A stretch of 56,689 nt of DNA from an uncultured Candidatus Saccharibacteria bacterium (GCA_964427275.1 CAYRSR010000005.1:1-56689); one strand, 5' to 3'; counted from the stretch's first letter, positions 27,049-56,689 are shown. Numbers and translations are program-made. The notes: generated from the sequence alone by a model not told the origin.

Positions 27049-27492
27049 TTATTTTTCCTCAGGTTCTTCTATTTTTTCTAAACGAATATCTTCATAACCT
27101 CTGCGCTTGCCAACAATTTGGTAATCAAAGCAAGCATTGGATTTACCATTATTTACTTCTTTAACCACAAAATAATTTTTATTTCTTTCAGCTATATAAA
27201 CACCATTACAATCATCTAATAAGCTAATAAAGACCATATATGGCTCTTTTTCGCTTATTGCTTCAGCAAAAATAGGATCTAATTCTATTTTGGCTGTTCC
27301 ATTTTTTAATTGACTTGAGCCAAAATCAGAAAACCAATGTTCAGTAGCCTCTTGAGAATAAAAGGCAAATCTACCAAAAGAAGTATCAGCAGCCGAAGAT
27401 TTAGAAGTAGCGTAAAAAGAACCATTGACATAGAGCTTGTAACTACCCGGATTCGTCGTCCCGATGCCGACGTTGCCGGAAGAATCAACAAC
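27049..27492 (-). pseudogene. Start-less 147-codon alternative C-terminal fibre cassette
   Basis: Open frame VVDSSGNVGIGTTNPG...EHWFSDFG...KRRGYEDIRLE bounded upstream by in-frame TAA at 27493-95; the 62-aa track ORF is only its tail. Confidence 0.8.
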
Positions 27493-28209
27493 TTAATTCT
27501 CTATGCTTTGCGTTACATTATGGAAGCTACAGACAATCTGGCCTCGCAATAATCTGAATTTCCTTCACAAGAAGAATATATAGTTCCCCCATCTACTTTC
27601 TTCCATTGCACTTTGATAGTATGTGCTCCAGCACTTAAATTTCCAACATAATGCAGATTTACATTATGCTGATCACCAGTATCCATTATTCTAACATGAG
27701 TTCGTGCAACTACTGCCCCATCAATTGTAATACGAAAATTATGCCTACCACTCTCACTTCGACATGTTACATCTGTATATAAAATTATCACATCCCCTCC
27801 AGTCCAAGTTGAGGGGATAGATATTGTCATATCAGGCACATCAGTCCAACTTGTGCTTGTAGTCGCTGCCTGTGAAGTTCTGAAAACTGATAATGCTAAC
27901 CTGGAACTCCCTGGGAGAACCTTCTCAGAAACTTTAAGATTCCCTACTACCTCCAACTTTACCCCCGGACTCGTCGTCCCGATGCCGACGTTGCCACTGC
28001 CTTTTATAACGAAAAGACTTTGTGGTGAATAGTCAGTGTTGTCCACAACTTTAAACAACTCCTTACTGTCGCTTGTATCCTCAGTATTCTCTACAATAAG
28101 TCCGTAACCATTTGCGTTTTGTTGCCTAATCCTCGCAACCCAACCAGTTATATTTTCGTAGACTGATAGCTTATTGGGTGGACTTGTCGTCCCAATGCCA
28201 ACATTACCT
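27457..28209. repeat. GC-rich GNVGIGTT-coding direct repeats, locus 1
   Basis: CGTCCCGATGCCGACGTTGCC exact at 27457-27477 and 27975-27995; degenerate copy at 28180-28209. Confidence 0.9.
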
Positions 28210-28649
28210 GGAAAAGAATAGTCTCCTCCCCCAGTATTGGAACCAAATTCACCTGCAGAAACATTAGCCGCTGAAACAGTTCCACCAGTATAAGTGGTTA
28301 AATCAAATTCATTTCCTGAAGAGTCTTTAAAATATAATTTGCCATCATCAGCCTTAACATAAACTTTTCCATAACCAGTAGTAGCCGAAGGAGGAGTAGA
28401 AACTTCATCTAAACTCAATACACCTTCTACAGTTAATTTTTCATTAGCTGAATTAGTTCCTATTCCAACATTTCCATCAGATTTAATAAAAATAGTTTGA
28501 GCTGGAGCATTTTCTTCTGAACCAATTACACCAGCTCCTTCAGGAGGATTCTGAGCTGGGTTACTAAAACCAGAAATAATAACTACCGCAATTAGAGAAG
28601 CAATCACCCCAACTAAAATAGAAATCAATAATTTAGTAACTTTATCCAT
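27513..28649 (-). CDS. Membrane-anchored fibre/adhesin-like protein with three GNVGIGT repeats and a beta-rich C-terminal domain
   Basis: N-terminal hydrophobic anchor; GNVGIGT repeats like those of phage tail-fibre proteins; C-terminal beta-sandwich-like domain. Confidence 0.65.
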   Translation of the reverse strand: MDKVTKLLISILVGVIASLIAVVIISGFSNPAQNPPEGAGVIGSEENAPAQTIFIKSDGNVGIGTNSANEKLTVEGVLSLDEVSTPPSATTGYGKVYVKADDGKLYFKDSSGNEFDLTTYTGGTVSAANVSAGEFGSNTGGGDYSFPGNVGIGTTSPPNKLSVYENITGWVARIRQQNANGYGLIVENTEDTSDSKELFKVVDNTDYSPQSLFVIKGSGNVGIGTTSPGVKLEVVGNLKVSEKVLPGSSRLALSVFRTSQAATTSTSWTDVPDMTISIPSTWTGGDVIILYTDVTCRSESGRHNFRITIDGAVVARTHVRIMDTGDQHNVNLHYVGNLSAGAHTIKVQWKKVDGGTIYSSCEGNSDYCEARLSVASIM

Positions 28650-28703
28650 ACTGACTTATTATAAAATAAAAAACTAATAGATGCAAAGAGAGTAAGTTTT
28701 AAT

Positions 28704-29222
28704 TTATGGTCTTACTACCAATATTCCTTCTACCTTAGCCTGACAGGTTTTACAGTAAAACTTAAACTTTCCTGCTTTTACAGCCTGAAATTCAATAACT
28801 TTAATTTCATCTGCTGCAGCTGTTTGGGACATACTATAATCAGGAATAGTTAAGTCGTAAGTTTTATCTTTAGCAGTAAAATCAATATGGACAATGTCAT
28901 TTTTATTTACAATTATTTTACTCGGCAAATATTCATCATTATTAGCAGTAATATCAAAAGAACGAAGCTTAGATGCTACTCCAGGAACAGCCTCAACAGA
29001 AACTTTAGGAATAGCGATTTCAACCGATTCTGGCTTCTCACCTGGTTCAGGAACTTTTATTCGTTTAAGTTCCAGTAACTCTTTCATTTGAAAAGAGGAT
29101 TTGAAGGGTTGAACTTGAACCAAATCAGATCTTAGTCTAATAACTTTAGTAATTAAACCAACAACAATTAGAATGACTAATGATAAGCCCAGTAAACTAA
29201 TTAAAACCTTTTTTTGATTCAT
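28704..29222 (-). CDS. Membrane-anchored cupredoxin-like domain protein
   Basis: N-terminal TM; YLPSKIIVNKND..V.I.F and GKFKFYC cupredoxin-type strands. Confidence 0.65.
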   Translation of the reverse strand: MNQKKVLISLLGLSLVILIVVGLITKVIRLRSDLVQVQPFKSSFQMKELLELKRIKVPEPGEKPESVEIAIPKVSVEAVPGVASKLRSFDITANNDEYLPSKIIVNKNDIVHIDFTAKDKTYDLTIPDYSMSQTAAADEIKVIEFQAVKAGKFKFYCKTCQAKVEGILVVRP

Positions 29223-29235
29223 AGTTAAATATTAG

Positions 29236-31632
29236 TTAAATCGTTAAAGTTAACTTTCTTTTTGGAAGTAAAGAATAAACTTTTTTATTTATTTCTATTA
29301 GTACTGGAGAAGTTTCAGATTGACTTAAAAACAAGCTAATTTTTTTCCGAGTTAGAGACAAATTAATACGTTTTCCCTGGTATGAAAAATCAAACTTTAG
29401 TTTTTGCCATTTTTGAGGAAGGCGGGGATTAATTCTTACTTTATCTTCTAGAAGCTTGACACCGGCAAAACCACGAATAACTAAATCAATTGAACCTCCC
29501 ATAGTACCGATATGAATTCCTTCTTGAGTAGTTCCCTGTTGGATATCACAAATATCTGAACTTAAAACTTTTTGAAACCAATCCCAGCTCTGTTTTGGTT
29601 GATTTAAAATAATGGAGATAAAACCATGAACTATTGGACTTAAAGTTGAGCCATGGCTGGTTCTCTTCAAATAATAATTATAATTTTTTCTCAACAATTT
29701 CAGATTAAAGTAATAACCTAGTCGTTTAAATAATTCGATTATCTCATCTAAGGGTAAAAGATAGAAAATCATTAATGCGTCAGCCTGTTTGATAATTTTA
29801 TACTCATCCGGAGATTTCCCTTCTGCTTTCAAAATTCTATCCATTCTCTGAATGTTTCCATATTTCCGCCGATATCTGGCTAGATTTAACTCTTTTAATT
29901 TGAAATAACCATCAAATTGAGAAATAATTCCATCTTTATTTATTATTAGCTTCATTTTCCTGCTAATCTCATCCCATTTTTTAAGTTCTGATTCAGTTAA
30001 ATTTAATTTATCTAAAATTCTTTTTCTAGCTGATGGAGGTAAAATTTCTAGAACTTTTTCAGCTTTAATTAAAGTCCAGGCAATCATTAAGTTAGTATAC
30101 GCATTATCCTTTAAGCCCGGAGTTTTTGAGTCTGGATATTTTTCATGAAATTCATCCGGTCCCATCACTTTTCTAGTATGATACCGCTTATCTTTTGAAT
30201 CATAATAAACTAAACTTGCTGCAAACCTAGCTATAGAAAGTAGCATTTCGGCACCATAATTTACCAAAAAGTCCAAATCAGCAGTTCGATTCCAGTGCTG
30301 CCAAACGTTATAGGCAATGGCAAAGGAAACATGTCTCTGATATCTACTATAATCTGGACCCCACCTTCCTGAAATTGGATTAAGATGCCAGGGTTGAGTT
30401 CTTTCCTCTCCAGTAGAACCACTATTCCAGGGAAACATTGCCCCACGATAGCCATTTTCTCTGGCATATTTTCTGGCCGCATCTAAACGTCGGTATCTAT
30501 ATAAAAGCAAAGCTTTAGCAACTTCAGGGAGATTGAAATCATAAAACGGTAAGGCAAAAATCTCGTCCCAAAATATTAATCCCCGATAAGATTCTCCATG
30601 TAATCCCCTAGCTGGCAGTCCTGCATCAATGTTTTTATTATGAATTGATGCTGTTTGAAGAAGATGAAATATATGCAATCGAATCACTTTCTGAGAAAAA
30701 TTGTCTCCGACTATCTGAATATCGCACTTTTTCCACAAATCTTTCCAGGTTTCTTGATGAGATTTAAATAGTTCTGAAAATCTTTTAGTCTGCTTAACTG
30801 AATTTATTGCTGAAACAACTAGATCTTTTTCTTTATCTCTAGAAGTATAAATTGAAACAATTTTTTCAATCAGATAAGATTGCTTTGGTTTAGCCAGAAA
30901 ACTAAATTGCCGACTAACTTTTTCTGGTTGCAAAACAGAATAACTACTCTTAGCTCTAGCAGGTTGACCATTAATGTACAGCTGAGTTCTAGCTGCTTCA
31001 GCAATAACAATTTTTGAATTTTTAGTAATCATAGCCAGATACATTCCATTCTTTTCAAATTTTCCAAATTTAAAAGGTAAAAGATGTTTAGAATTTAGCT
31101 GACGATATCTTTCCACTCCAGTATTTTCCACACTACCATCCAAGGTTGAATTCACAGTTATCACCTGCTCATAATTCTGAGGAATAATCTCATAACTAAT
31201 TGCACCAAGATGAGGGTATTTCATATGAACAATTCTTTTAATATTAATATCAGTTATCTGATTATACTTATCTTTCAATCTGAGTTCCCAGTTAAGAAAT
31301 CCTTCTTTAAAATTTAAAGTTTGATTAAATTTTAATGTTTTGGTATTTAATAAGTTAATCCAATCTCCGGTTCCAATTTTAAACTCTAATTTAATCCAGT
31401 TAGGACAATTAACCATAGATTCATTAATTATGGTCCTGCCGGCAATCTTAGTAGAAAGTTCATTATAAACTCCAGCCAAGTAAGTTCCTGGATAATGAAT
31501 ATCAGAAGCATCGGCTTCGCAAAGTGCTCCACGAGTAGCAAAATAGCCATTCCCCAAAACACAAAGAGCTTCTCTTAACTTCTGTTTTTTTGGATTAAAA
31601 CTTTTATAAACCAAACTCCAGGTAGAACTCAT
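29236..31632 (-). CDS. GH65 disaccharide phosphorylase (trehalose/trehalose-6-phosphate phosphorylase-like)
   Basis: LGNGYFATRG, RGLHGESYRG..FWDE, catalytic GPDEFHE, KQAD and HGSTLS motifs. Confidence 0.9.
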   Translation of the reverse strand: MSSTWSLVYKSFNPKKQKLREALCVLGNGYFATRGALCEADASDIHYPGTYLAGVYNELSTKIAGRTIINESMVNCPNWIKLEFKIGTGDWINLLNTKTLKFNQTLNFKEGFLNWELRLKDKYNQITDINIKRIVHMKYPHLGAISYEIIPQNYEQVITVNSTLDGSVENTGVERYRQLNSKHLLPFKFGKFEKNGMYLAMITKNSKIVIAEAARTQLYINGQPARAKSSYSVLQPEKVSRQFSFLAKPKQSYLIEKIVSIYTSRDKEKDLVVSAINSVKQTKRFSELFKSHQETWKDLWKKCDIQIVGDNFSQKVIRLHIFHLLQTASIHNKNIDAGLPARGLHGESYRGLIFWDEIFALPFYDFNLPEVAKALLLYRYRRLDAARKYARENGYRGAMFPWNSGSTGEERTQPWHLNPISGRWGPDYSRYQRHVSFAIAYNVWQHWNRTADLDFLVNYGAEMLLSIARFAASLVYYDSKDKRYHTRKVMGPDEFHEKYPDSKTPGLKDNAYTNLMIAWTLIKAEKVLEILPPSARKRILDKLNLTESELKKWDEISRKMKLIINKDGIISQFDGYFKLKELNLARYRRKYGNIQRMDRILKAEGKSPDEYKIIKQADALMIFYLLPLDEIIELFKRLGYYFNLKLLRKNYNYYLKRTSHGSTLSPIVHGFISIILNQPKQSWDWFQKVLSSDICDIQQGTTQEGIHIGTMGGSIDLVIRGFAGVKLLEDKVRINPRLPQKWQKLKFDFSYQGKRINLSLTRKKISLFLSQSETSPVLIEINKKVYSLLPKRKLTLTI

Positions 31633-33194
31633 AACAACTTTTGAAACAATTCTTGAACCTGCTTAGGAGATGAAACTCTAAAATCTGCTGCCGAAGCTCT
31701 TGGTTTTTCTGAGACTAAAATTCCAGTTCCCCTGGTTCTGATTATTCTAAAAGCGTCTTCATCAGTAACATCGTCACCAACATAGATTACACTAAAGTCT
31801 CTAAAAGATATATTTAAAGTGGACATAATCCACTTAATTGCTTTTCCTTTGTTCCAATCAACATTTGGTAAAAGCTCAAAAACTTTTTTCCCCGACATTA
31901 ATCTTAAACCAGGATTGGTTTTAACTATATTTTTAACTATATCTCCAATTATATCTAGATATTTTTCTTGCTTCACCAATCGATAATGAATCGCCAAACT
32001 AAACTTTTTTTCTTCAATTATTAAGCCAGGAATACCCAACAATTCAGATTTAAGACCTTTAGCTAGTTTAGAAATTGTTGGAGCTATTTTTTCAGCCGAT
32101 GGATGAATCATAGATAAGTCTCTTCCTTTAATGTCAAATCCATGACTTCCAGCATAAAAAATACCAGGAATTTTTACCAGGTTTTCTACATCTTTTCTTT
32201 CTCTGCCACTTACTATTGCAACTACATAATGCTTGGATAACTCTTTTAATGTATCTCTCATTGACTCCGATAGCAAAGCCAGTTCCGGTCGACTAACTAT
32301 TGGAGTCAAAGTTCCATCATAATCCAGGAAAAAAACCGGCTTTCGATTATTTAAAGCTAACTTAAAACTTCGCTCGTAGCTTGAATTTACTAAAATTTTA
32401 TCAACTAAAAGATTTCCTAAATCTCTTGGTTTTTCCCAGAATTTAAACAGGTCAGCCGGTTTTAAGTTAAACCAACTTTTAATCCAGGCTACATTAATAT
32501 CTGACAGGTCAGTTACGACAATATCAGCTCCACAGTTCAGTAATTCTGACTGATTATTTTCCCTGGCCACTCCTATCACCAATCCAAAACCGCCGTTTCT
32601 GCCGGCTTCTACTCCGGAGGAGCTATCCTCTACAACTGCTAATTCAGCTGGGGCTATTCCCAGGTTATTTGCTGCAGTGACAAAAATATCCGATTCAGGT
32701 TTACCTTTAAGATTAAGTTTAGAAGAAACTAATCCATCTACTATTGTAGAAAATAAATCAGTAATTCCCAAGCTTTCTAAAATAAAACTGCCGTTTTTAG
32801 AAGAAGTAGCCAGTCCAACTTTTAAATTGTTCCTCTTAAGCTGGTTAATAAAATCAATCGAAGAGGGAAAAACTTCAGCACCTTCAGTTTGAATTATTCT
32901 TCTAAATAAAACATTTTTACGATTTCCAATTCCACAAATCGTTTCCTTGTCAGGGTCATCTTGAGAAGTTCCATAAGGAAGTCTTATACCTCTGGAATTT
33001 AAAAAACTTTTTACACCCTCATATCTTGGCTTACCATCTACGTAATCCAAATAATCCTTTTTTGTAAATGGCCTGAATGGTAAATTTAATTTTTTCAAAT
33101 AATCTTCAAAAGTTGATTTCCAGGCTCGAAAGTGAACTGAAGCAGTTTTGGTAATTACTCCATCTAGGTCAAAGATTACTCCCTTAAAATTCAT
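31629..33194 (-). CDS. Bifunctional HAD: beta-phosphoglucomutase-like plus trehalose-6-phosphate phosphatase
   Basis: N-terminal FDLDGVIT, GKPESD and VVEDS; C-terminal LDYDGTLTP, VSGR, GSHG and GDDVTDEDAF (OtsB type). Confidence 0.9.
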   Translation of the reverse strand: MNFKGVIFDLDGVITKTASVHFRAWKSTFEDYLKKLNLPFRPFTKKDYLDYVDGKPRYEGVKSFLNSRGIRLPYGTSQDDPDKETICGIGNRKNVLFRRIIQTEGAEVFPSSIDFINQLKRNNLKVGLATSSKNGSFILESLGITDLFSTIVDGLVSSKLNLKGKPESDIFVTAANNLGIAPAELAVVEDSSSGVEAGRNGGFGLVIGVARENNQSELLNCGADIVVTDLSDINVAWIKSWFNLKPADLFKFWEKPRDLGNLLVDKILVNSSYERSFKLALNNRKPVFFLDYDGTLTPIVSRPELALLSESMRDTLKELSKHYVVAIVSGRERKDVENLVKIPGIFYAGSHGFDIKGRDLSMIHPSAEKIAPTISKLAKGLKSELLGIPGLIIEEKKFSLAIHYRLVKQEKYLDIIGDIVKNIVKTNPGLRLMSGKKVFELLPNVDWNKGKAIKWIMSTLNISFRDFSVIYVGDDVTDEDAFRIIRTRGTGILVSEKPRASAADFRVSSPKQVQELFQKLL

Positions 33195-36413: not shown

Positions 36414-37742
36414 TTAATCAATTTCTTTAATTGACTCAATTAATTTTTCAAGTTGCTGGTTTTTTGTTTCAAGAGGTTTCAAACTAATTGTCTTATCTAG
36501 TGCACGCCTACGCAAAAATCCCACACAGGCTATTTGATTCCAATCAATAAAAATCACTTGCTTAACTCTAGGATGCTTCAGAATTGTCTTAATTAGTTTA
36601 GCTCTTAGCTTGGCTCGAGTATTAGATGGAGGATTTTTTTCAGCTCTGCTAATTTCAGCATCAATAACCAATCTTCTAATTTTCCCCTGGTTAAGTAACT
36701 TATAATAGATCCCTAATTCAGGATTTAGGAGATGATACAGCCAGGCTAAATTTCGAACCTCTTTACTCCCTAAGCTCAGTCCTCTTTTGGCCTGGTAAGT
36801 TCGAATTAGTTTCTGTTTAATACACCAATCAAGTTCAGTTCCACACAACTCTGGATCAGCAGATAATTTTCTAAGTTTATCTTCCCATTCAATCATCACT
36901 ATCTTTTGCTCTTTAGTTGGTCGAGCTACCTGCTTAAAAAATATCCTAGCTTGATTGTAGTACCATTCCTGTAGATTGATTGCAGTAAATCTTTTTTTAT
37001 TACTCAATCTCACCGTTTTCTTACATTTCGGGTCACTGGAAATTTTCCAGATTGCCCTAACTGGCTTTTGCAAGCTCGGAACTTTCTTCAAAAACCTAGC
37101 TTCAATCATTTGCAAAACAATATCAGTAGTACCAAACTTTAAAAAAGTAGAAACATCAGCTAAGTTCGCATCACCCAGAATCAAATGAAGGCGTCCTGCT
37201 TTTTTAGTGTTAATAATTGCTCTTTGTGCAGTAGTACAATCACCAGTCACCTGGGTAATAAAAGCTGCTCTCTGAGAAATGTGATACTCAAATCTACCAC
37301 CAATTCTCTCAATATTGCCAGCACCGCATAAGATCTGCCGACTTACTAGAAATGGAACTAAACATTTCACCAAATACCAGAACTCAGATGCATACTCCCA
37401 CAAAAATTGAGGCAGAATAGAATAATTTTCGTGAGCTCCAGAGGTGGAATCATCATTTCTGCTACTCTTCAGTATCTGAGCTACTCGTCCTATCTTTTTA
37501 AGCACAATTCTATCACCAGCTCGGTCATAAACTAGTAAATCTCTGATAGTTGCACATTCTGGAGTTGCATATTCTACCAAATCTCGATCCAGGTACAATC
37601 TAGCTCCATTTAGAATGAACTGGCAAACTATTTCTGGATCATCCTTGATAATCTGAACATATTTTGGTGTGTTACCTAAAATTTTTTGTTCTTCCTTTTC
37701 AACTATCCGGTACTCACTTTCTAATCCAAAAATTCTTTTCAT
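36414..37742 (-). CDS. pafA: PafA-like Pup/UBact ligase (divergent)
   Basis: RIFGLESE, NGARLYLD, EYATPEC, DRAG, HENY, SQRA, RLHLILGDAN; no Dop-type loop. Confidence 0.7.
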   Translation of the reverse strand: MKRIFGLESEYRIVEKEEQKILGNTPKYVQIIKDDPEIVCQFILNGARLYLDRDLVEYATPECATIRDLLVYDRAGDRIVLKKIGRVAQILKSSRNDDSTSGAHENYSILPQFLWEYASEFWYLVKCLVPFLVSRQILCGAGNIERIGGRFEYHISQRAAFITQVTGDCTTAQRAIINTKKAGRLHLILGDANLADVSTFLKFGTTDIVLQMIEARFLKKVPSLQKPVRAIWKISSDPKCKKTVRLSNKKRFTAINLQEWYYNQARIFFKQVARPTKEQKIVMIEWEDKLRKLSADPELCGTELDWCIKQKLIRTYQAKRGLSLGSKEVRNLAWLYHLLNPELGIYYKLLNQGKIRRLVIDAEISRAEKNPPSNTRAKLRAKLIKTILKHPRVKQVIFIDWNQIACVGFLRRRALDKTISLKPLETKNQQLEKLIESIKEID

Positions 37743-37801
37743 TTAAATCACCTCCGATTTTGCTAATAAACCATATACTTAAGCTTCAAATAGCCGTGTT
37801 T

Positions 37802-37829
37802 ATACTAACATTTTTTTAAAATAAGTCAA
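37802..37829 (-). promoter_or_regulatory. Promoter of pafA-like gene
   Basis: TTGACT, 16 bp, TAGTAT with upstream TG; GGAGGTGA Shine-Dalgarno before the ATG. Confidence 0.55.
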
Positions 37830-37835
37830 GTAAAG

Positions 37836-37864
37836 TAAAAACCCCGCTAGTTCCTAGCGGGGTT
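37836..37864 (-). terminator. Terminator after pup-like gene
   Basis: AACCCCGCTAG-TTC-CTAGCGGGGTT plus U-tract on the - strand. Confidence 0.85.
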
Positions 37865-37875
37865 AATTTGAAGTA

Positions 37876-38064
37876 TTATTGCCCCTCTTTTTTATCTCTA
37901 TTGCGATATTGCTTTTCTTTAACCTCTTTCACTATCTTATCAATTTCGTCTATATCATCATCTTTCAAAAAATCCTCGTCAAGGGGCTCAAATGGTTTAA
38001 CTGGCTGCTCATGGGGAGGTCTTTCTTCTCTCTTTTGACCATTCAATTTTAAAATTTTAGTCAT
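37876..38064 (-). CDS. Pup/UBact-like small modifier protein (62 aa, C-terminal EGQ)
   Basis: AGGAGG SD before ATG 38064; charged, disorder-prone; DDDIDEIDKIVKE resembles the Pup helix; ends in GQ; inside the proteasome operon. Confidence 0.75.
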   Translation of the reverse strand: MTKILKLNGQKREERPPHEQPVKPFEPLDEDFLKDDDIDEIDKIVKEVKEKQYRNRDKKEGQ

Positions 38065-38068
38065 AATT

Positions 38069-38746
38069 TTACCTCCTCTGAAATTTTTTATCTCTGCTTT
38101 GAATCCCCACCTCAAACCTGATTTCTTGACCTTCCGGAGTTAAAACCTTTTTAAGAATATCAATAGCAGTTTCAATGTCCAGTTCCTCAAATCTTCGATC
38201 AGCCAGATGCTGCTTAATTTTCTGTTCCAGGCTTGAATAAGTCTCATCAGTTCCAGCTAAAACAGCATAAGAACTCTCTATCTGAGTCAATATCCCACTG
38301 GGAGAAACCACAAATATCTTATCCTGCTCTGGAGTTGAATTAACTTCAGCTAGTAAAAACTTTACACAAATAGGGAATCTTTTTGGGTCAATATAAATTT
38401 TCCGAATTAAGCTCCCTAGTACTAAAGCTAAACTGTCAACATGGACATCTTCTTCAGAATACTGAAGAACATGAGTGCTAACCAGCTTAACTGCAATATC
38501 CTGAATTCCCTCCAGACCAGGAATTCTTACTGAACCAACTCCTTTAAAATCAGTAAATTCACCAATTCCTCCAAATACAATCTTGGAAGATACTGGCCAA
38601 ATTTTTTTTCTAGTGCCGGCACTTTCAGTTACCAGTACTAATCCATCTCTGGTTGAAGCTGCTACAATTGGTCTTGATTTACTCAGTTTTTCTCGAATAA
38701 GCTCATCTTTTTGAATTAGCACTTCTCTTAAATTATAGCTGAACAT
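38069..38746 (-). CDS. prcA: 20S proteasome alpha subunit
   Basis: Aligns by eye with actinobacterial PrcA (KIVFGGIGEFTDF, VKFLLAEV, VLAGT, FEVG, FQRR); SD-supported start at 38746. Confidence 0.8.
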   Translation of the reverse strand: MFSYNLREVLIQKDELIREKLSKSRPIVAASTRDGLVLVTESAGTRKKIWPVSSKIVFGGIGEFTDFKGVGSVRIPGLEGIQDIAVKLVSTHVLQYSEEDVHVDSLALVLGSLIRKIYIDPKRFPICVKFLLAEVNSTPEQDKIFVVSPSGILTQIESSYAVLAGTDETYSSLEQKIKQHLADRRFEELDIETAIDILKKVLTPEGQEIRFEVGIQSRDKKFQRR

Positions 38747-39434
38747 TTTTATCACCCTCCTCAATTTTGCTTATTTTTTCTGAATCAATTTCAACTATCT
38801 CATCCTCGATGATATAAACCAGCTTTACTTTTCCAGTCTGAGGGTTTCTCTGATAAGCTAAATTTAAAGCAGCTACTGCAATCTTTACTGCCTGAAATTT
38901 GGATAATTCCTCATTCCAGTTGCTATCCAGATAAGTTAAAGCCTGTTGACTACCGCTACCAACTGCTAAATATTTCACTTCATATCTTGCTCCAAGATAA
39001 TCGTAACCATAAATCTTATTTCTAGACGCATAAATAGGCAGGACTACTATACCGGCAGAAGCTAATGGAGCAAACTTAGCCAGAATTCTAGAAACTAAGT
39101 TAGCCTTTCCTTCAAAGGACAACCGGTGAGTCTGAGTTCGATTGTAAATATCAACCTCAGCTCTAAGAAATCTGATTAACTCCATAGCTGGAGCTACACT
39201 ACCAGCTACTGCAATTACACTATCTTCATCAATCTTAAACAGTTTCTTAAAGTTCTCCGAGCCAATAAGAGTTGGGTTAAAACACATTCGGCAATCTCCA
39301 GCTACTACTACACCATTCTTATATTTCAGAGCTAAAATAGTAGTTCCATGTAAAATATCCCGTTCTTTAACTGACTGTTTACTCAAGCCAGCAAAGCTTC
39401 TCACATATTCCTGGATTTCCTTTTCTAATTTCAT
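38733..39434 (-). CDS. prcB: 20S proteasome beta subunit with propeptide
   Basis: HG|TTILALKY cleavage site with Thr1, AGDCR, K33-equivalent, AVGSGS; SD-supported start at 39434. Confidence 0.9.
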   Translation of the reverse strand: MKLEKEIQEYVRSFAGLSKQSVKERDILHGTTILALKYKNGVVVAGDCRMCFNPTLIGSENFKKLFKIDEDSVIAVAGSVAPAMELIRFLRAEVDIYNRTQTHRLSFEGKANLVSRILAKFAPLASAGIVVLPIYASRNKIYGYDYLGARYEVKYLAVGSGSQQALTYLDSNWNEELSKFQAVKIAVAALNLAYQRNPQTGKVKLVYIIEDEIVEIDSEKISKIEEGDKNVQL

Positions 39435-39439
39435 TTTTT

Positions 39440-40915
39440 TCACCTCCTTAATTCCTGAATTTTTTTCCAAAATTCAGTTTCCTTTTCTTTTCCAACTAGA
39501 GGATTCATTAAATAAATTAACCGATAGTCTCCTATACTTAACCCGCTACTAGCTAAACTTTCCCGATTAAAGCGATACTCAATAATCTCCCAATCCTTTA
39601 CCATCTCTGAAGCATATCCAGCTACCTTTCCTCTAAGATAAGCCCGAGTATTCTCTGGAGGATAAACCATTCGCTGCCTGATTAAGTCTTCACTAACTAT
39701 TTGCTTTATTTTTCCACGCTTTTCTAAAATTAAGTAGAGTCCCTTTTCAGGATTTAGATCATGGTAAGCAATGTCTATTGCTTTCAGTTTACCGCTATTC
39801 AGAGATAGATTATTTCTCTGTCCTATTCTTTTCAGTAAGTATTTTTTGGTTATCCAGTCTAGATACCCAACTAGTGAATCTGGTTGTTTTAACTGATTCA
39901 ATATAAACTGCCAGTGAGCCAAAATTTCTTTTTCTTCCTGGCTAAAGTTACCATACTCTCTAGCTTTATTCAGGTACCAATACTGAATATCCAGAGCAGA
40001 AACCTCTCGTCCGTTTATCGTGCCAATCTTAGCTGCAAAATTTCGAGAAACTTGTTTAATAGCCTTAACCGGATCAATTATTTTCGGAGCTTCTTTGATA
40101 AAGTCATCTTCTAGCATTGACAGAACTATACTGGTAGTTCCAACTCGAAGATATAAACTCCAATCACATAGATTAGCATCTCCTAAAATCAGATGTAACC
40201 TGGCAAACTTTTCTGGATCAGCATGGGGCTCATCTCTAGTATTGATGATATTCCTGTTCGAGGTGGTTGAAGATCCGATAACCCGAGTAATAAAGTCAGC
40301 TCTTTGAGAAACCTGGTAAATTGATTTCATTTTCTCAAAGATATTTCCTCTTTCAATTCCAATCTTCCCAGCTCCACATAAAATCTGACGACTCACTAAA
40401 AATGGAATTAACTTCTTCTGAAAATCTGAATCCATCATTAACCGATTAAAAGCACTCCTTTTTAAAAGATAGTTCTCATGAGAACCCCAGGAGGCACCCT
40501 GTCGATTAGAATTATCTTTCAACACGATTATTCTTTCATTCAATATCTGAGAAACTTTCTCGGCTGCTTTTTGAACCAGCAAGTTTCCAGCTTTGTCTGC
40601 AGCAATCAAATCCTCAACAGTTGCACACTCTGGAGTAGAATACTCCAGATGAGGATAATCTACATAAATTCTAGCTCCGTTTGGCAAAAATAAGCTTCCT
40701 TCTTTAATCTCCTCTTTCCTTCTATTCAACTCTCTTTCTGCTTGAGAAGTTGAGCCTTCCCACTTAAGCTTCTGGTTAGCGCCAATTCTGAAAAAATCCC
40801 GAATCACTTTGAGAAATAAATTGAACTCCTTAATATCAGCCCCCTTATCAGTTCCTTTTTTCTGAGGAACTATTATCGACCATTCAGTTTCAATTCCAAA
40901 AACTCTTTTAATCAT
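39440..40915 (-). CDS. dop: Dop-like deamidase/depupylase
   Basis: RVFGIETE, Trp-containing loop, NGARIYVD, GASWGSHENY, INTRDEPHAD, RLHLILGDAN; SD-supported start at 40915. Confidence 0.8.
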   Translation of the reverse strand: MIKRVFGIETEWSIIVPQKKGTDKGADIKEFNLFLKVIRDFFRIGANQKLKWEGSTSQAERELNRRKEEIKEGSLFLPNGARIYVDYPHLEYSTPECATVEDLIAADKAGNLLVQKAAEKVSQILNERIIVLKDNSNRQGASWGSHENYLLKRSAFNRLMMDSDFQKKLIPFLVSRQILCGAGKIGIERGNIFEKMKSIYQVSQRADFITRVIGSSTTSNRNIINTRDEPHADPEKFARLHLILGDANLCDWSLYLRVGTTSIVLSMLEDDFIKEAPKIIDPVKAIKQVSRNFAAKIGTINGREVSALDIQYWYLNKAREYGNFSQEEKEILAHWQFILNQLKQPDSLVGYLDWITKKYLLKRIGQRNNLSLNSGKLKAIDIAYHDLNPEKGLYLILEKRGKIKQIVSEDLIRQRMVYPPENTRAYLRGKVAGYASEMVKDWEIIEYRFNRESLASSGLSIGDYRLIYLMNPLVGKEKETEFWKKIQELRR

Positions 40916-40996: not shown

Positions 40997-41005
40997 GCCT
41001 TAAAA

Positions 41006-46917: not shown

Positions 46918-47640
46918 CTAAAGGTCTCTACTACCACAGGAGGGCGAACCCCACGAGTTACTCTCACTATTGACCCAACATTGATCGAGCATCGGTATAT
47001 CCAGCAGCACGACATCCGGCACCATATCTCTCTCATCATAGCTACAACGGGAACCAGTAGCCTGGACGTAGTGATGTTTAAGCACATTAGTGTGAACACA
47101 GAGCGCAATAATTTCAGCAGCAGTAAGGGGGGATCTCGGCTGTTCTTCGAGAATTTTTTCTGCCTCTTTTGGGCTCTTTCCAACAAGCCTCCTACCATCC
47201 TCAATATCATAGATGTAGTAGGGTTTATCTGGAGTTTTAATCTTATCGGTAATACTAGTAACAACTACTGGATCCAGATGAACGTAGCCCCGCTTGTCAC
47301 CATTTCGTACCATAGCCATCAGATCATAGAAACTCCGATAGGTTTGTGGAATAACTGGAATGAATGGAATATGTCCATTTTCAAAAGCAATTTTACTTGC
47401 TTTCGAGAGTACCGAACTTTTCTGTGCAACAAGCAATCCAATAATCTGGTCAGGGCAGCCGCGATCCCATAGGACTTGAATCTGGCTATCAAACAATTTC
47501 TCTAAGACTTCATACTTGGGTTTCTTTGCTTCAACTACCAGCCGATTTTTGGCTTCTTTGATTGCTTTATCAATATCTTTGTCTGAAATACCTTTGAAAA
47601 GTGACACTAACTTATCAACCAACTTATCCTCTTTACCCAT
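46918..47640 (-). CDS. DUF5701-like protein, paralogue A
   Basis: PFIPVIP, YDIEDG, SPLT, WGSPSCGSR; family name from memory, needs an HMM check; SD-supported start at 47640. Confidence 0.55.
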   Translation of the reverse strand: MGKEDKLVDKLVSLFKGISDKDIDKAIKEAKNRLVVEAKKPKYEVLEKLFDSQIQVLWDRGCPDQIIGLLVAQKSSVLSKASKIAFENGHIPFIPVIPQTYRSFYDLMAMVRNGDKRGYVHLDPVVVTSITDKIKTPDKPYYIYDIEDGRRLVGKSPKEAEKILEEQPRSPLTAAEIIALCVHTNVLKHHYVQATGSRCSYDERDMVPDVVLLDIPMLDQCWVNSESNSWGSPSCGSRDL

Positions 47641-47714
47641 CTTCACCTCCTTTTTCAAGTTTTTCCAGAAATATTTGTTAATGTTCAAGCCAGTTTATTT
47701 TTACTGTTGGGAAA

Positions 47715-47743
47715 GGTATAACACAATATGTTATATTTGTCAA
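47715..47743 (-). promoter_or_regulatory. Promoter of paralogue A with internal palindrome
   Basis: TTGACA, 17 bp, TATACC with extended TG; ATAACA...TGTTAT inverted repeat within it. Confidence 0.6.
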
Positions 47744-47789
47744 GCCCTTGTAAGACAGGTATGTTTTGATAAGTATGATTTTCGCAGGC

Positions 47790-47934
47790 TATCTCAATAA
47801 GGAGGTTTTATTTAAAGAAGTCAATTTAAAGTTAAAATCTTTAAGTCTTCTTTTTTAGTTATAATCAGTACTTAACCAATTATCTGGCATCTTAAAAAAG
47901 AAAGGGAGTAGAACTTTTTAACTCTACTCCCTTT
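47790..47934. repeat. 145-bp direct repeat, copy 1
   Basis: Base-for-base identical to 49515-49659. Confidence 0.95.
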
Positions 47935-48082
47935 GTTAATCCTTTAGGTAGCCTGCAAAAAAGTTGCAGGACTTAAAACAAAAGCCACGATTTTTGCTGT
48001 TCACTTCCAAATCTATTCCGTGTAAAATTTTTATTCCATTATGACCTGTTTTTAGATTATTTATTTTAAGCTTAAAATTAAG

Positions 48083-48847
48083 TTACCGTACTTCAGAAAA
48101 AATAAAAATTAATCTTTGTTTTAATTCAGGAATAATTTTTCGGTAATTAGAAGGCAAAAATTTTACTAAATCAAGATAAATTTTCTTTTCTGGATAATTT
48201 TTGATTTTTTCCAAGAAAAACTTCTTGTGGAATTCTAAATTTACTGTTTTTAGTTTTTTTTTCAAAAGTTTTTTGTTTATTAAAACTCCTTTATCTAAAA
48301 GATACCACAAATCAAAAATATCTCTTCCTTTTCCTCGCCAAAGAAAAGCCCTGATTTTTTCAACTAAAATTTCTTCTTCTTTTTGGCAGGAAACCAAAGA
48401 GAAAAAATTAACCGGAAATTTTGTTTTTAAAGAAAGAATGTTTGGCTCAAGAAAAGTTCTCTCTAAAGAAAAATCCAACCTTATTGTTTGAGGAAATTTT
48501 AAGAACTTACTTTCATATTTTAACCTAAATCTTAATGAGTTTTTTCCCCGATAAATAAAACTTAAACTTGATTCTGGAACTTCAATTTGAAATTTTTTTA
48601 TTATCTCTTTTAAAAAGTTTTTAATTTTCTTTTCAGAAAGAGTGGTTGAAAAGTCCAAATCTTCTGAAAACCTTGGAGATTTATAAAATAAATGAAGGCA
48701 AGTCCCTCCTTTAAAATAAATTTTCTCAGCCAACTTTTCTTTGTAAAGATAATTTAAAAACAAAATCTGGAGATACTCCCGAAATATAGTAAACCTGTCA
48801 ATCTTAAAATACTGGGAAAGTTGTTCTAACTGGGTTTTACTTATCAT
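48083..48847 (-). CDS. abiEii: AbiEii-type nucleotidyltransferase toxin (type IV TA)
   Basis: IYFKGGT, RFSEDLDFS, EKIRA, RDIFDL. Confidence 0.9.
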   Translation of the reverse strand: MISKTQLEQLSQYFKIDRFTIFREYLQILFLNYLYKEKLAEKIYFKGGTCLHLFYKSPRFSEDLDFSTTLSEKKIKNFLKEIIKKFQIEVPESSLSFIYRGKNSLRFRLKYESKFLKFPQTIRLDFSLERTFLEPNILSLKTKFPVNFFSLVSCQKEEEILVEKIRAFLWRGKGRDIFDLWYLLDKGVLINKKLLKKKLKTVNLEFHKKFFLEKIKNYPEKKIYLDLVKFLPSNYRKIIPELKQRLIFIFSEVR

Positions 48848-48850
48848 AAT

Positions 48851-49447
48851 TTATAAAAACTTTTTCAATTTTTCTTGCTTGGTTTCTTTTAAAAGAGAAA
48901 AAAACTTCTTTTTATTTATCAAACTTAGGTCAAAATCATCTTTTTCAAATCTTCTCAATCCCTTTGAACAAAAATAAAGATAATCAAAAAACGCTTTTTC
49001 TTTAGAGGCAATTAAAAATTTTTCTTTTTTTTCATAATCAAAAAACAATTTGGGTTTGATATGAGAATAAAAAAATTCTTTATCGAGTGTTTTTATGATT
49101 TTTGTTTTTTTAAGAGTGACTGAAGTAACTTGATAAGGAAACTGGGTAATAATTCCATAAAAAGACAAAGCTGATTCTAAAGAAATATAAGAAGGAGAAT
49201 ATAAAAAATTGGCAATTTGAAAATCATCGCTTTCTGAAAAAACAAAGAGATATTTCTTTTTAATCAATCTTTTTAAAATTCCTTTTTTGGTTAATCTTTC
49301 TAAAATTTTAGAGGCGGTATTTTCTTTTTTAATCTGAAAAAATTTTTTAAAATCAGAAAAAGTAAAAAGAGAAATTCCTTCTTCCTTTAGTTTTTTAATA
49401 ATTATTGTTTGAGATAACGATTCCTTCATCAGTATAATATTATACAA
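48851..49447 (-). CDS. abiEi: AbiEi-type antitoxin / transcriptional regulator (start probably ATG 49429)
   Basis: wHTH-like N-terminus, PSYISLESALSFYG, ASKEKAFFD; immediately upstream of abiEii. Confidence 0.85.
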   Translation of the reverse strand: MYNIILMKESLSQTIIIKKLKEEGISLFTFSDFKKFFQIKKENTASKILERLTKKGILKRLIKKKYLFVFSESDDFQIANFLYSPSYISLESALSFYGIITQFPYQVTSVTLKKTKIIKTLDKEFFYSHIKPKLFFDYEKKEKFLIASKEKAFFDYLYFCSKGLRRFEKDDFDLSLINKKKFFSLLKETKQEKLKKFL

Positions 49448-49514
49448 TTTCTGTCATTGTGTCAAATAGCTGTCAAAATGTAATTATCTTATACAGCTGA
49501 GAATTTTCGAAGAT

Positions 49515-49659
49515 TATCTCAATAAGGAGGTTTTATTTAAAGAAGTCAATTTAAAGTTAAAATCTTTAAGTCTTCTTTTTTAGTTATAATCAGTACTTAA
49601 CCAATTATCTGGCATCTTAAAAAAGAAAGGGAGTAGAACTTTTTAACTCTACTCCCTTT
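49515..49659. repeat. 145-bp direct repeat, copy 2
   Basis: Identical to 47790-47934. Confidence 0.95.
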
Positions 49660-49705
49660 ATTAACTACATTTTTAGCCTGGAAAAAATTTTGTAGGGTTT
49701 AGAAC

Positions 49706-50341
49706 CTAAAGGTCTCTACTACCACAGAAGGGCGAACCCCAGCGTTCATCCCGAGTATCGACAAGGCCCCATCCGAGGACTGGCATACCACCATGTAGGA
49801 AAATAGCTGGTATTCCGTCGTCTGACTTGTTATAACAGGAACCAGCAGCCTTGATATAGTGATGTCTAAGTACATCAGTATGAATGGTAAGTGCTATAGC
49901 TTCGACAGTAGTAAGTGGAGACCTTAACTGCTTTTTAAGGATTTTTTCTGCATCCATCGGACTCTTTCCAAGAAAAGCTCTACCATCCTCAACATCATAG
50001 ATATAATAAGGCCTACCTGGAGTCTTAACCTTATCAGTAATATCTGCTGGATCCAGCTGGGTGTAGCCCCACTCGTTACCATTTCGTACCATGGCTATCA
50101 GATCATACAAGGTCCTGTACCTCTGTGGAATAACCGGAATAAATGGAATATGTCCATTCTCAAAAGCCATTTTACTTGCTTTCGAGAGTACCGAACTTTT
50201 CTTTGCAACAAATAGCCTAACAATCTGTTCAGGACAACTAAGATTCCGCAAAGTTTGAATCTGAGTGTCAAATAATCTCTCTAAGTCTTTATACTTGAGC
50301 TTATTTGATTCAACCGCCAACTTATCCTTACTCTTACCCAT
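49706..50341 (-). CDS. DUF5701-like protein, paralogue B
   Basis: About two-thirds identical to paralogue A over the core; WGSPFCGSRDL end; SD-supported start at 50341. Confidence 0.55.
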   Translation of the reverse strand: MGKSKDKLAVESNKLKYKDLERLFDTQIQTLRNLSCPEQIVRLFVAKKSSVLSKASKMAFENGHIPFIPVIPQRYRTLYDLIAMVRNGNEWGYTQLDPADITDKVKTPGRPYYIYDVEDGRAFLGKSPMDAEKILKKQLRSPLTTVEAIALTIHTDVLRHHYIKAAGSCYNKSDDGIPAIFLHGGMPVLGWGLVDTRDERWGSPFCGSRDL

Positions 50342-50417
50342 TTTCACCTCCTTTTTTTCAAGTTTTTTCAGAAATATTTGTTAATGTTCAAGCCAGTTTA
50401 TTCTTACTGTTACAGAA

Positions 50418-50527: not shown

Positions 50528-50986
50528 CTATAAAATTAGATTCTTTAAGTCTTTTTTCCTATGCTTATGTTCAGCTAATACTTTTTTAACCAGCTTATCG
50601 GCTGGTTTATTTTCTTTTCGGGAGATATAAATAAAATCCACTTTTTTGAAGTCCTGTTTTAAGTTCCAAATTTCAATAAATAAAGGGAAAAGTTCCCGAT
50701 GTTTAATTTTATAAGTTCCATTTAGTTGATTTACTATTAACTTGCTATCTGAACGAATCTCAACTTCAGTTTGTCTGGTTTTAGTTTTACCTATTAATCT
50801 CTTTAATTTATTTAATCCAAAAATCACTGCTTGATATTCAGCAATATTGTTAGTAGTTTCTCCAATAAACTTAGAATAGTTTTTGACTTCTGACTTTAAA
50901 TTTTGAATCTTAACAACTATTCCAATTGCTGCCGGGCCAGGATTTCCAATTGAACCACCATCAGTATTAATAATAACTCTGCTCAT
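50528..50986 (-). CDS. rnhA: Ribonuclease HI
   Basis: TDGGSIGNPGPA, TNNIAEY, SDSKLIVNQ, NKPADKL. Confidence 0.93.
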   Translation of the reverse strand: MSRVIINTDGGSIGNPGPAAIGIVVKIQNLKSEVKNYSKFIGETTNNIAEYQAVIFGLNKLKRLIGKTKTRQTEVEIRSDSKLIVNQLNGTYKIKHRELFPLFIEIWNLKQDFKKVDFIYISRKENKPADKLVKKVLAEHKHRKKDLKNLIL

Positions 50987-55309: not shown

Positions 55310-55363
55310 TAGTGGAATTATAAAAGAACATTTTATTAAAATCAACAATTGATTTACAATATG

Positions 55364-55590
55364 TTATGCCAATCTACAAATTGCTAATAATCAACGAATT
55401 TACGAATAAAAGTTAGAAGTTGGAAGTTAGAAGTTGAAAGTTGGAAATTGATTGATAACAAAAATATCCGAAACTTATTAACAAATTTCACGATCGTGAA
55501 AAGTGTTAATAAGAAAAATCTAATTGAAAATTGAACTGATTAAGTTTTAGTTCAAAAAAAATTACGTAATCTATTACGTAATTTTTTGGA
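55364..55590. repeat. Dispersed composite intergenic repeat, copy 3
   Basis: Matches 18-133 and 197-270; palindrome at 55474-55513; ATTACGTAAT at 55561 and 55573. Confidence 0.85.
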
Positions 55591-55669
55591 TTCTTTTAAA
55601 AAATATATGGACTTCGCAAGTCCTTATATCACCAACTAGGATTAATTAAAACCGCTATTAATATAAAAC

Positions 55670-55703
55670 AACATTCTAACATTCTGCAGGATGTTAGAAT
55701 GTT
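55670..55703. repeat. 13-bp inverted repeat downstream of the fibre gene
   Basis: AACATTCTAACAT-TCTGCAGG-ATGTTAGAATGTT. Confidence 0.7.
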
Positions 55704-55752
55704 TAATTTTATTACTAAAGTTTAACTCCGATAATCGAAAATAACTACCTGT

Positions 55753-56689
55753 TTATCTAGTTACTTTCTCCAGTAAAAATTTGTAAATTTCACCAGTTTT
55801 TTGATTTTCTAAATACAGTCCATTTTCATCCTCAAACATTCGCCAGAGTGGCTCACCATCTTTTTTAAAGAGTATATCGCCTGTATGATAACTGTGTGCT
55901 GACACAGTACCTTCCACATCTAACTTATACTGTGGACTCGTTGTGCCGATGCCGACGTTGCCGGTTCTTGTAACTAAAAACCTAGGTGTTCCCAGCACGT
56001 TGTCATCCCAGGCCCCAAAAATACATGAACCATCATTAGCAATTACATTAAGTGTAGCGGTGAGACTAGGAGTACCATTACCAATTTTTAATTTCGATTG
56101 GGAGTCATCTCCAACTCCTTTATCTCTAATTTCCAGATTTGCCCCCGGATTCGTCGTCCCGATGCCGACGTTGCCGTTTTCTTGTATTCTAAACAACTCA
56201 GTCCCACTGTCTCCCGGACTCGTAGTATCTTTTACAACTCTAAACGCTTGACTTGCTGAATTGTTATTAGCATCAATGCCTATATGCAACCCACCATCTG
56301 TAATTATTACACCATCGCCTACTCCCTCATCACCAAGTTCAAGGTTTGACCCTGTTGTCCCAGAAACGCCTGTAGCTATGTGCAATTTACTTCCCGGACT
56401 CGTTGTCCCAATGCCGACGTTGCCGCCATTTTGCATAAGTTGCAATTCATCATTGGCCATATCAAAGGTTAAAAAGTTTGTAGAGTCTGGTGAAGGATCA
56501 GCAAAGGAAAACTGATTGGTATCTACTTGGATAAGTTCTACGTCCCCAGTTGGAAAAGTCCATCGTTGTCCATCACCACTAATCTCTAATTTTCTTCCTG
56601 GCCCTGTCGTCCCGATGCCGACGTTGCCATTGCTATCTATTACCAAATCTCCTCCAAGATATGTTCTTTCAATATGAAGGGAGTCGTCT
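55753..56689 (-). CDS. GNVGIGTT-repeat fibre/adhesin protein, 5'-truncated by the window edge
   Basis: Frame stays open to 56689; four GNVGIGTT modules; C-terminal TGDILF...WRMFEDENGLYL...KTGEIYKF resembles phage tail-fibre ends. Confidence 0.7.
   Translation of the reverse strand, partial: DDSLHIERTYLGGDLVIDSNGNVGIGTTGPGRKLEISGDGQRWTFPTGDVELIQVDTNQFSFADPSPDSTNFLTFDMANDELQLMQNGGNVGIGTTSPGSKLHIATGVSGTTGSNLELGDEGVGDGVIITDGGLHIGIDANNNSASQAFRVVKDTTSPGDSGTELFRIQENGNVGIGTTNPGANLEIRDKGVGDDSQSKLKIGNGTPSLTATLNVIANDGSCIFGAWDDNVLGTPRFLVTRTGNVGIGTTSPQYKLDVEGTVSAHSYHTGDILFKKDGEPLWRMFEDENGLYLENQKTGEIYKFLLEKVTR
55934..56628. repeat. GC-rich GNVGIGTT-coding direct repeats, locus 2
   Basis: 21-mer exact at 56155-56175 and 56608-56628; near-exact at 55934-55962 and 56393-56425. 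Confidence 0.9.

Follow-up and report, generated by a model that had tools for sequence, protein, structure and literature searches.

Two fibre loci and their motif copies

We analysed a stretch of 56,689 nucleotides, hereafter the window, from an uncultured Candidatus Saccharibacteria bacterium (GCA_964427275.1 CAYRSR010000005.1:1-56689), in which two loci 29 kb apart encode fibre-like proteins with a recurring peptide motif, GNVGIGTTxP. The DNA of this motif forms an island of identity that defies the local codon usage and whose whole-string consensus is limited to eight codons. Furthermore, breakpoints in related sequences coincide with the motif, one of its copies in the window is a hybrid of host-type and consensus-type codons, and a startless cassette begins at another copy.

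Gene 1 (27513-28649, minus strand) is an open reading frame (ORF) for a fibre-like surface protein of 378 aa. An N-terminal transmembrane helix, hydrophobic and located at residues 2-29 in the AlphaFold2 (AF2) models, is followed by the motif copy M1, module 1, M2, module 2, M3 and finally tip A, a beta-rich C-terminal domain. A promoter-like site lies upstream of the gene at 28687-28658. Gene 2 (55753-56689, minus strand), whose 5' end lies beyond the window, is also fibre-like and consists of four motif-bounded modules and a tip C. The third element is an orphan cassette encoding tip B (27049-27492, minus strand), a startless open frame of 147 codons which lies in another frame than gene 1 and has no ATG, GTG or TTG before residue 70. 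This frame opens 21 nt past the stop codon of gene 1 and five codons ahead of the motif copy M4, which is 36 nt beyond that stop codon and differs from gene 1 in frame. A promoter and terminator scan near the cassette gave nothing informative, and the next feature downstream of it is the 23S rRNA gene. Close to either fibre locus there was no prophage, recombinase or retroelement.

The in-frame sites coding for GNVGIGT are eight, every one of them on the minus strand. Four of the eight hold an identical 23-mer, GGCAACGTCGGCATCGGGACGAC in coding sense, for which chance gave no occurrence in 100 shuffles. Its plus-strand form, GTCGTCCCGATGCCGACGTTGCC, is exact at 27455, 27973, 56153 and 56606 and has two mismatches at 55940 and 56402, in agreement with the original prediction, made from the sequence alone, of a GC-rich core exact in four places and near-exact in two. 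The 33-nt identity between 27446-27478 and 56144-56176 which had been reported there was also reproduced, at 100%. Nevertheless, the copy at 27446-27478 had been placed in the context of the 378-aa gene, and this we had to correct, as it lies beyond the stop codon and heads the orphan frame.

The consensus string is GGC AAC GTC GGC ATC GGG ACG ACG, with around 70% GC, and the identity between copies runs from the first base of the Gly codon to the Pro-Gly codons. Given the peptide and the codon usage of the window, the probability of this codon string is 5e-10; ACG represents 1.9% of the Thr codons and GTC 5.8% of the Val codons. The GC content at third codon positions (GC3) of the inter-motif modules is host-like, 0.12-0.37, whereas eight of the eight motif codons end in G or C. 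Outside the motif there is no DNA similarity among the modules of the window, which bears out the earlier statement that they are little alike.

Regarding the individual copies, all on the minus strand, M3 (27963-27995) has the exact 23-mer in its GC-rich consensus (GNVGIGTTSPG) and forms the junction with tip A, and M4 (27446-27478), also of consensus type, heads the orphan cassette. In gene 2, M5 (56606-56628) and M7 (56144-56176) have the exact consensus, M7 being the copy that shares 33 nt with M4, and M6 (56402-56424) and M8 (55940-55962) have two synonymous differences each, M8 forming the junction with tip C. M1 (28455-28475) has host-type codons (GGA AAT GTT GGA ATA GGA ACT), which confirms that the most N-terminal repeat of the 378-aa gene is written in AT-rich codons. 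Its peptide is degraded to GNVGIGTNS, where the TxP part is lost and there is no Pro, and GC3 around it is 0.12-0.13. M2 (28188-28208) is the hybrid copy, with GGT AAT GTT of host type followed by GGC ATT GGG ACG ACA of consensus type. A step in GC3 is located at M2, with 0.13 over the 78 codons before it and 0.37 over the 60 codons after it (Fisher p=0.002). Contig L357, an independent assembly from another sample, reproduces 2222 nt of the window including two motifs at 100% identity, and therefore the pattern is not an assembly artefact of the window's contig.

The motif peptide and its protein family

Searches of PHROG matched gene 1 and gene 2 to tail fibres (E=1e-12 and E=3.5e-25 respectively) and the orphan cassette to a tail protein (E=3e-17), and Pfam and NCBIfam gave no family for the three fibre ORFs. 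Among the known structures of the PDB, gene 2 matched 8ond (Bdellovibrio Bd2133) with E=3e-11 and gene 1 matched 8oml weakly, with E=0.009; further matches among the fibre proteins of Bdellovibrio bacteriovorus were 8ojn and 8on4. The mosaic adhesive trimer (MAT) fibres are trimers of intertwined beta-helices, akin to the tail spikes of S74 phages, and they have a recurring "capping loop", a constant base, swapped C-terminal tips and a role in surface adhesion (PMC10769870, Caulton et al. 2024). The GxVGxG...P..KL turn of the window proteins aligns with the solved MAT fibres (8ond, 8oml, 8ojn and 8on4). Since the HMMER alignments to 8ond and 8oml coincide with GNVGIGT(T)xPxxKL and fall on the capping loop, GNVGIGTTxPxxKL is, as judged by alignment at the protein level, a structural turn already described in a type of fibre that is itself known.

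Relatives often carry PF13884 Peptidase_S74, and GNVGIGTTxPxxKLxVxG is the sole conserved element in an alignment of 43 relatives. The closest named relatives of the fibre gene are mostly metagenome-assembled genomes (MAGs) of Patescibacteria. No relative of the 378-aa protein exceeds 60% local identity and none exceeds 43% across at least one third of its length, and a search of metagenome contigs for syntenic relatives, by way of the neighbouring cupredoxin gene, found only a second contig of the same organism. The AF2 monomer of this protein reached a predicted local distance difference test score (pLDDT) of 42 without an alignment and 58 with the 43-sequence alignment, the tip being below 50, a quality too low for assigning folds to the tips. 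We consider the window proteins to be phage-tail-fibre-like and probably trimeric surface fibres, which would be adhesins of the Patescibacteria-like bacterium.

These proteins also differ from the MAT fibres. Gene 1 is short (378 aa), and a transmembrane anchor seems to take the place of the signal peptide and the conserved 130-aa N-domain; only around 30 residues separate the helix from M1, and therefore such a domain is unlikely in gene 1. The window proteins are without the S74 domain and their host is Patescibacteria-like. Furthermore, the MAT study considers motif and mosaicism only in the proteins and is silent on DNA conservation (PMC10769870).

The codon string as a DNA consensus

The motif was searched for in IMG/VR, GTDB and metagenomes, where our figures cover the matches listed, and counts given as at least 120 are lower bounds. 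We found the exact 23-mer in at least 120 IMG/VR contigs, with a local GC of 29-65%. Among the matches listed, 172 of 172 exact sites are in frame within long ORFs (median 711 codons). The flanks of the exact sites, 90 nt on each side and anchored at the motif, have a median identity of 29-31%, which is the random level, and 124 of 153 sites are without any partner at 60% flank identity or more. Two of the loci, L030 and L077, belong to genuine phages with head, terminase and portal genes, and the motif is inside their tail-fibre gene. The GTDB matches include Patescibacteria, Omnitrophota, Bacteroidota, Planctomycetota, Proteobacteria, Acidobacteriota and a few archaea, and copies that are exact or agree in 7/8 codons occur in MAGs labelled Doudnabacteria, Berkelbacteria, Saccharibacteria, Omnitrophota, Hyphomicrobiaceae and Chloracidobacterium.

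A codon-unbiased scan was made with the degenerate pattern GGNAAYGTNGGNATHGGNACNAC against IMG/VR and against GTDB with one genome per species. In every GC3 bin below 0.75 the motif has a higher GC3 than the usage of its own ORF for the same amino acids, for example 0.41 vs 0.17, 0.50 vs 0.34 and 0.65 vs 0.44. The sites of cellular genomes have 3.37 consensus codons where 1.98 are expected (per-locus Wilcoxon p=7e-7), and those of viral contigs 2.46 where 1.33 are expected (p=8e-5). Of all strings in the cellular (GTDB) sample, the exact 24-mer is the most frequent, with 12 observed vs 0.034 expected, and in viral contigs it was observed 4 times vs 0.009 expected. We also shuffled codons among sites inside GC3 bins, preserving the position-specific frequencies, and exact strings were 9 observed vs 0.41, while strings with at least seven of the eight codons were 23 observed vs 3.6. 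As the excess survives this permutation, it is a matter of a whole-string haplotype and not of a preference for each codon. Besides, the GC3 excess is found only in motif codons 0-7, and Pro +9 (94% conserved), Leu +13 (83%) and Gly +17 have the average GC3 of the ORF. Therefore, the excess is no property of conserved residues as such. The original prediction that the DNA itself is constrained or homogenised is sustained by the excess in the unbiased scan, the restriction to eight codons, the whole-string behaviour and the unrelated flanks.

These results bear directly on translational selection acting codon by codon, in which critical residues would use "accurate" C-ending codons. The first five consensus codons do end in C (GGC AAC GTC GGC ATC), and AAC and ATC pair in Watson-Crick fashion with G34 tRNAs. 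However, the rare codons GGG and ACG, the latter with its 1.9% of Thr codons, belong to the consensus, the three Gly positions favour different codons, and the equally conserved Pro +9, Leu +13 and Gly +17 are unbiased. This lack of bias and the whole-string excess of 9 vs 0.41 with position frequencies kept largely refute this explanation, to which we give very little credence.

The string could also be an element acting in the mRNA or DNA, such as a hairpin or a ribosome pause that times co-translational folding or trimer registration, recombination then being a by-product. The consensus allows a 5-bp stem, CGTCG(N9)CGACG, two pairs of which depend on the synonymous choice, and the island is confined to a coding context and coincides exactly with a structural turn, the MAT capping loop (PMC10769870). 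Nevertheless, the covariation at the predicted pairs 9/21 and 6/24 is equalled by the non-pairing controls 9/18, 9/24 and 3/21, so it reflects haplotypes and not structure, and no Rfam family matches at the loci. A ribosome signal shared by many phyla would not require one exact 24-mer, and such an element leaves the breakpoints at the motif edges and the hybrid M2 unaccounted for. We regard this explanation as unlikely. Covariation inside the motif was rejected as a sign of RNA structure because control position pairs show the same excess.

The original prediction had spoken of "foreign" GC-rich codons. Their GC-richness is real, but an origin in GC-rich donors did not hold up, because the string of high-GC genomes, GGCAACGTGGGCATCGGCACCAC, is rare (4 IMG/VR contigs, compared with 71 for the all-T string and at least 120 for the consensus) and the flanks are host-like. 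The prediction would also have given way to a codon use that tracks genome GC in other taxa, and here the outcome was divided: the tracking is partial, and in the most AT-rich phages the excess is small.

Copies within one locus differ by 3.12 codons, vs 4.99 between GC-matched loci (p=5e-14). Some loci of uncultured phages and gammaproteobacteria (L026, L002, L192 and L300) have 12-17 motif copies per gene, and L026 (IMG/VR 3300025317_000141) contains 15 exact 23-mers within 7 kb; multi-copy loci of this type would be good material for the study of concerted evolution of the joint.

GenBank records of cultured phages are practically devoid of the consensus, two Synechococcus phages giving the best matches at 84%, and this near absence may explain why the consensus has gone unnoticed. 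None of 8.3 million searchable full texts contains the string "NVGIGT", and the other literature gave general precedents only.

Breakpoints at the motif

In order to locate breakpoints, we took the internal ends of segments with at least 85% identity (high-scoring segment pairs) and counted those within 12 nt of a motif. At the exact-string loci, 19 of the 64 internal segment ends were at the motif vs 1.4% expected, which is around 20 times chance (p=3e-20). In the unbiased viral set they were two of eight (p=0.004).

Several pairs of contigs illustrate the pattern. L070 and L078 are 96-100% identical exactly from motif to motif, with one module shared at 98-100% identity, and around 45% identical outside, and one further module is present in only one of the two, with the same neighbours. 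The clearest case is that of the cassette in the window. Tip B (SYKLYVNGSFYATSKSS...RRGYEDIRLEK) recurs in four metagenome contigs (L355, L356, L358 and L359), whose homology to the window starts at the motif and stops at the stop codon. L355 and L356, from different samples, have 3019 nt at 99.7% identity which begin with the motif's first base, and they are dissimilar upstream. In L355 YadA-like "NTALG" repeats continue in frame into tip B. In L356 an ORF at 1-130 with the Patescibacteria surface-protein motif GYAWSENIGWISFN runs out of frame into the GNVGIGTT string, and therefore an unrelated surface-protein gene abuts the cassette. L358 has tip B as the in-frame C-terminus of a multi-motif gene. 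In L359 tip B is startless again, and the exact consensus is found one codon after the stop of another gene. The role of crossover site that had been predicted for the motif is supported by the segment ends, by these two pairs (L070/L078 and L355/L356) and by the hybrid M2.

Within the tip-B family, 37-44% of the identical-residue codons in the tip differ synonymously, while the eight motif codons have no difference among the window, L358 and L359 and two differences with respect to L355. In this small family alone the synonymous conservation is marginal (p around 0.01-0.02, and not for L355), but it agrees in direction with the other results.

A further alternative is a passive relic, that is, a recent transfer from a common donor pool in which the string is simply the slowest-evolving part and has no role. 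Fibre genes are notoriously mobile, the GC3 of module 2 and tip A exceeds that of the resident parts of gene 1, and some contigs share whole modules. However, the flanks of the 153 exact sites are at random-level identity, and tip B has a host-like GC3 (0.18) and the synonymous divergence of 37-44% mentioned above with 0/8 changes in the motif against L358 and L359. Furthermore, the third positions of the adjacent conserved Pro and Leu codons are not preserved, the string expected of a GC-rich donor is rare, and motif identity that outlasts saturated neighbouring synonymous sites is already partly seen. A passive relic is therefore an improbable explanation.

The position of the cassette raises programmed variation, in which the motif would be the site of a site-specific recombinase, as in a shufflon or a Gin/Cin-like system, or the cassettes would be silent donors for tip switching. 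A startless cassette lies directly behind an expressed gene, this is found again in L359 and probably in L356, and the layout resembles that of pilS, Rhs or CdiA orphans. In the Mu G and P1 C segments (Gin/Cin) and in the R64 shufflon (Rci), alternative C-terminal ends are joined at a short coding repeat. The likeness to the window is that a constant part is joined to alternative fibre or pilus ends at a repeat in coding sequence; the difference is that those systems need inverted repeats and a recombinase, whereas the eight copies of the window are direct and none of 244 multi-copy loci combines copies from the two strands. Pfam scans of around 50 of the 52 window ORFs of at least 100 aa gave only housekeeping genes, RuvA among them, and no recombinase, invertase or reverse transcriptase of a diversity-generating retroelement (DGR); an RVT_3 match at 50528-50986 is an RNase H-type protein. 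The motif repeats are short, identical and not adenine-variable, unlike the template/variable pairs of a DGR. Moreover, the phyla and phages with the string cannot share one enzyme, orphan cassettes are rare in general, and reciprocal recombination of the window's loci would remove the essential genes in the 29 kb that separate them. We consider programmed variation highly improbable.

Silent cassette arrays as a general feature were ruled out, given that only 1-2 of 620 motif sites lie within five codons of a stop.

Contigs also tend to stop shortly after a motif copy. In the window 61 nt follow M5 and in L357 18 nt follow M4, and among the matches listed 20 of the 172 exact sites have a locus end no more than 150 nt away. 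Assembly graphs probably fork at the shared string, which fragments fibre genes or risks mis-joins in them, and on the practical side the string appears to break metagenome assemblies.

Homologous recombination as the favoured explanation

We think it probable that the identity island is a homologous-recombination joint for the exchange of fibre modules and that it is kept uniform through that use, recombination thus being our inferred reason for the DNA conservation. The fibres consist of dissimilar modules, each opened by the turn motif GNVGIGTTxP, and an island of 21-33 nt is common to the copies in a gene, to both loci, and to fibre genes of unrelated bacteria and uncultured phages. As the island is the sole DNA identity between unalignable modules and sets the reading frame, it would be the preferred crossover point. 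A crossover there could proceed by ordinary homologous recombination or annealing, each exchange giving an in-frame chimera. An island of this length should be long enough as a minimal pairing segment for RecA-type or phage single-strand-annealing recombination. Repeated crossover and gene conversion through the island would homogenise the copies locally and tie them to a wider pool, and lineages that keep the common "plug" would keep access to the module pool, an advantage at the level of the lineage. The high GC may stabilise the short heteroduplex or may stem from GC-biased conversion, and copies out of use, such as M1 beside the membrane anchor, would decay to host codons.

The history of gene 1 can be read in these terms. 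Its anchor and module 1, taken together with tip B, have a GC3 of 0.15, vs 0.29 for module 2 and tip A (p=3e-4). In the simplest history, an imported segment (the 3' half of M2, module 2, M3, tip A and the stop codon) may have entered a gene that ended in tip B, with the left crossover inside M2, and tip B with its M4 would have been displaced downstream as a startless remnant. M3 and M4, at a distance of 518 nt, are direct repeats with 25 bases in common, and a deletion between them would re-fuse tip B in frame because the motif sets the frame.

A further step, which we put forward tentatively and hold to be possible but rather less likely than the joint itself, is that GGCAACGTCGGCATCGGGACGAC(G) serves phages and the bacteria at large as a "standard plug", a linker embedded in coding sequence and kept by selection for global module compatibility. 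Such selection would be frequency-dependent and act on lineages, and phages and cellular adhesins, including those of host-dependent Patescibacteria, would share one module pool. The string would then be a concrete and testable example of the linkers that the modular theory of phage evolution postulates.

Several points weigh against recombination as the reason for the conservation and against the plug. The 19 ends at the motif stem from around three groups of related contigs and therefore are not independent events, and the species-dereplicated cellular set held no segments of at least 85% identity and had no power. Beyond the tip-B family orphan-like starts are rare, with 1-2 of the 620 motif sites within five codons of a stop. 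In the most AT-rich phages (GC3 below 0.25) the motif mostly follows the host codon usage, and 71 contigs carry the all-T version, so the constraint is not universal. The fixed GGG and ACG positions, that is, the choice of this exact string, are not accounted for. No recombination event was seen directly, and none between the two window loci, and the searched collections contained no close relatives of the window genome. All the comparison sequences are metagenome assemblies, in which a repeat of 23-33 nt could cause chimeric joins; an artefact of this kind is unlikely for the window and stays as a formal caveat for the mosaic comparisons. Finally, proof of second-order selection for "compatibility" is difficult to obtain, and such selection is controversial in principle.

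The range of cells to which phages, predators or episymbionts can attach depends on receptor-binding fibres, whose rapid diversification is a central problem. A few model phages are known to swap modules at conserved motifs, and here one string of 23-24 nt recurs against the codon bias. If it is kept for compatibility, it would open evolvability selection and the "linker" hypothesis to experiment, provide a natural frame-preserving joint for swapping fibre modules, and serve as a search handle for fibre and adhesin genes in metagenomes.

Relation to known systems of module exchange

In the modular theory of Botstein, "linker" sequences at the borders of phage modules are said to act as patches of homology. 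The mobile regulatory cassettes of T4-type phages, promoter early stem-loops (PeSLs), are found at module borders (PMC2839356); PeSLs are intergenic and consist of a promoter and a stem-loop, whereas the motif is a linker within coding sequence, constrained by its peptide and shared with cellular genes.

Exchange within conserved motifs of tail-fibre adhesins has a precedent (PMC3157838). The T-even fibres, with the His boxes of gp37 and the glycine-rich motifs of gp38, resemble our case in having short conserved motifs between hypervariable segments. However, the T-even motifs are confined to one phage group, with exchange proven by crosses, where the evidence here is comparative; the window motif, in turn, is one DNA consensus over phyla and phages of 29-65% GC, with codons that run against host usage.

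Recombination at the 3' tip of Rhs and CdiA genes replaces one C-terminal domain by another (PMC3482391). As in those systems, a full gene is followed by a promoterless and startless C-terminal cassette that begins at a conserved junction. The differences are that the window has one cassette and that the motif recurs inside the gene, so internal modules are swappable too. Pfam and NCBIfam gave no match to Rhs/CdiA toxin or immunity proteins at the fibre ORFs of the window. The orphan cassette works like an Rhs/CdiA displacement, but it is not a member of the polymorphic toxin systems.

The principle is a known one, both for conserved motifs as recombination joints in fibre adhesins and for tip displacement. 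What appears to be undescribed so far is the exact DNA consensus of this motif, which defies codon usage, is limited to eight codons and extends over phages and several bacterial phyla, together with the orphan cassettes headed by the motif in Patescibacteria-like genomes.

Other features of the window

The window has a GC content of 33% and a GC3 of 0.25 (43 ORFs). By its gene content it reads as a chromosome stretch of a small AT-rich Patescibacteria-like bacterium, with genes for 23S and 5S rRNA, the RNase P RNA, aminoacyl-tRNA synthetases, RuvA, GreA, NusB, L32, RNase III, TIM, PGK and a fused RpoB-RpoC. In the region 23089-26363 (minus strand) the 23S rRNA match spans 3139 nt vs 2925 nt of the model, that is, around 200 nt extra, and the 5S gene lies next to it. 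Neither a 16S gene nor any tRNA gene occurs within the 56.7 kb, so the rRNA genes are unlinked.

RpoB (residues 1-1040) is fused to RpoC (1044-2204) in a single ORF of 2214 aa (13234-19878, minus strand), for which the best NCBIfam models are the fused beta/beta' equivalogs. A complete-looking Pup-proteasome cluster is located at 36414-42822 (minus strand) and includes two PafA/Dop-like genes of the Pup-ligase family, the alpha and beta subunits of the proteasome and an AAA ATPase of ARC/Mpa type; it is unexpected in a small AT-rich Patescibacteria-like genome.

In the region 46918-50347 (minus strand), near the RNase P RNA, an AbiEii-type toxin gene (48083-48847) has a partner ORF of 198 aa upstream, and two DUF5701 paralogues (46918-47688 and 49706-50347) flank the pair; this region resembles a small islet of defence or toxin-antitoxin genes. 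At 29236-33194 (minus strand), immediately upstream of gene 1, are a GH65 glycoside phosphorylase, a HAD/trehalose-phosphatase fusion and a cupredoxin-like protein, and thus sugar-metabolism genes adjoin the adhesin gene.

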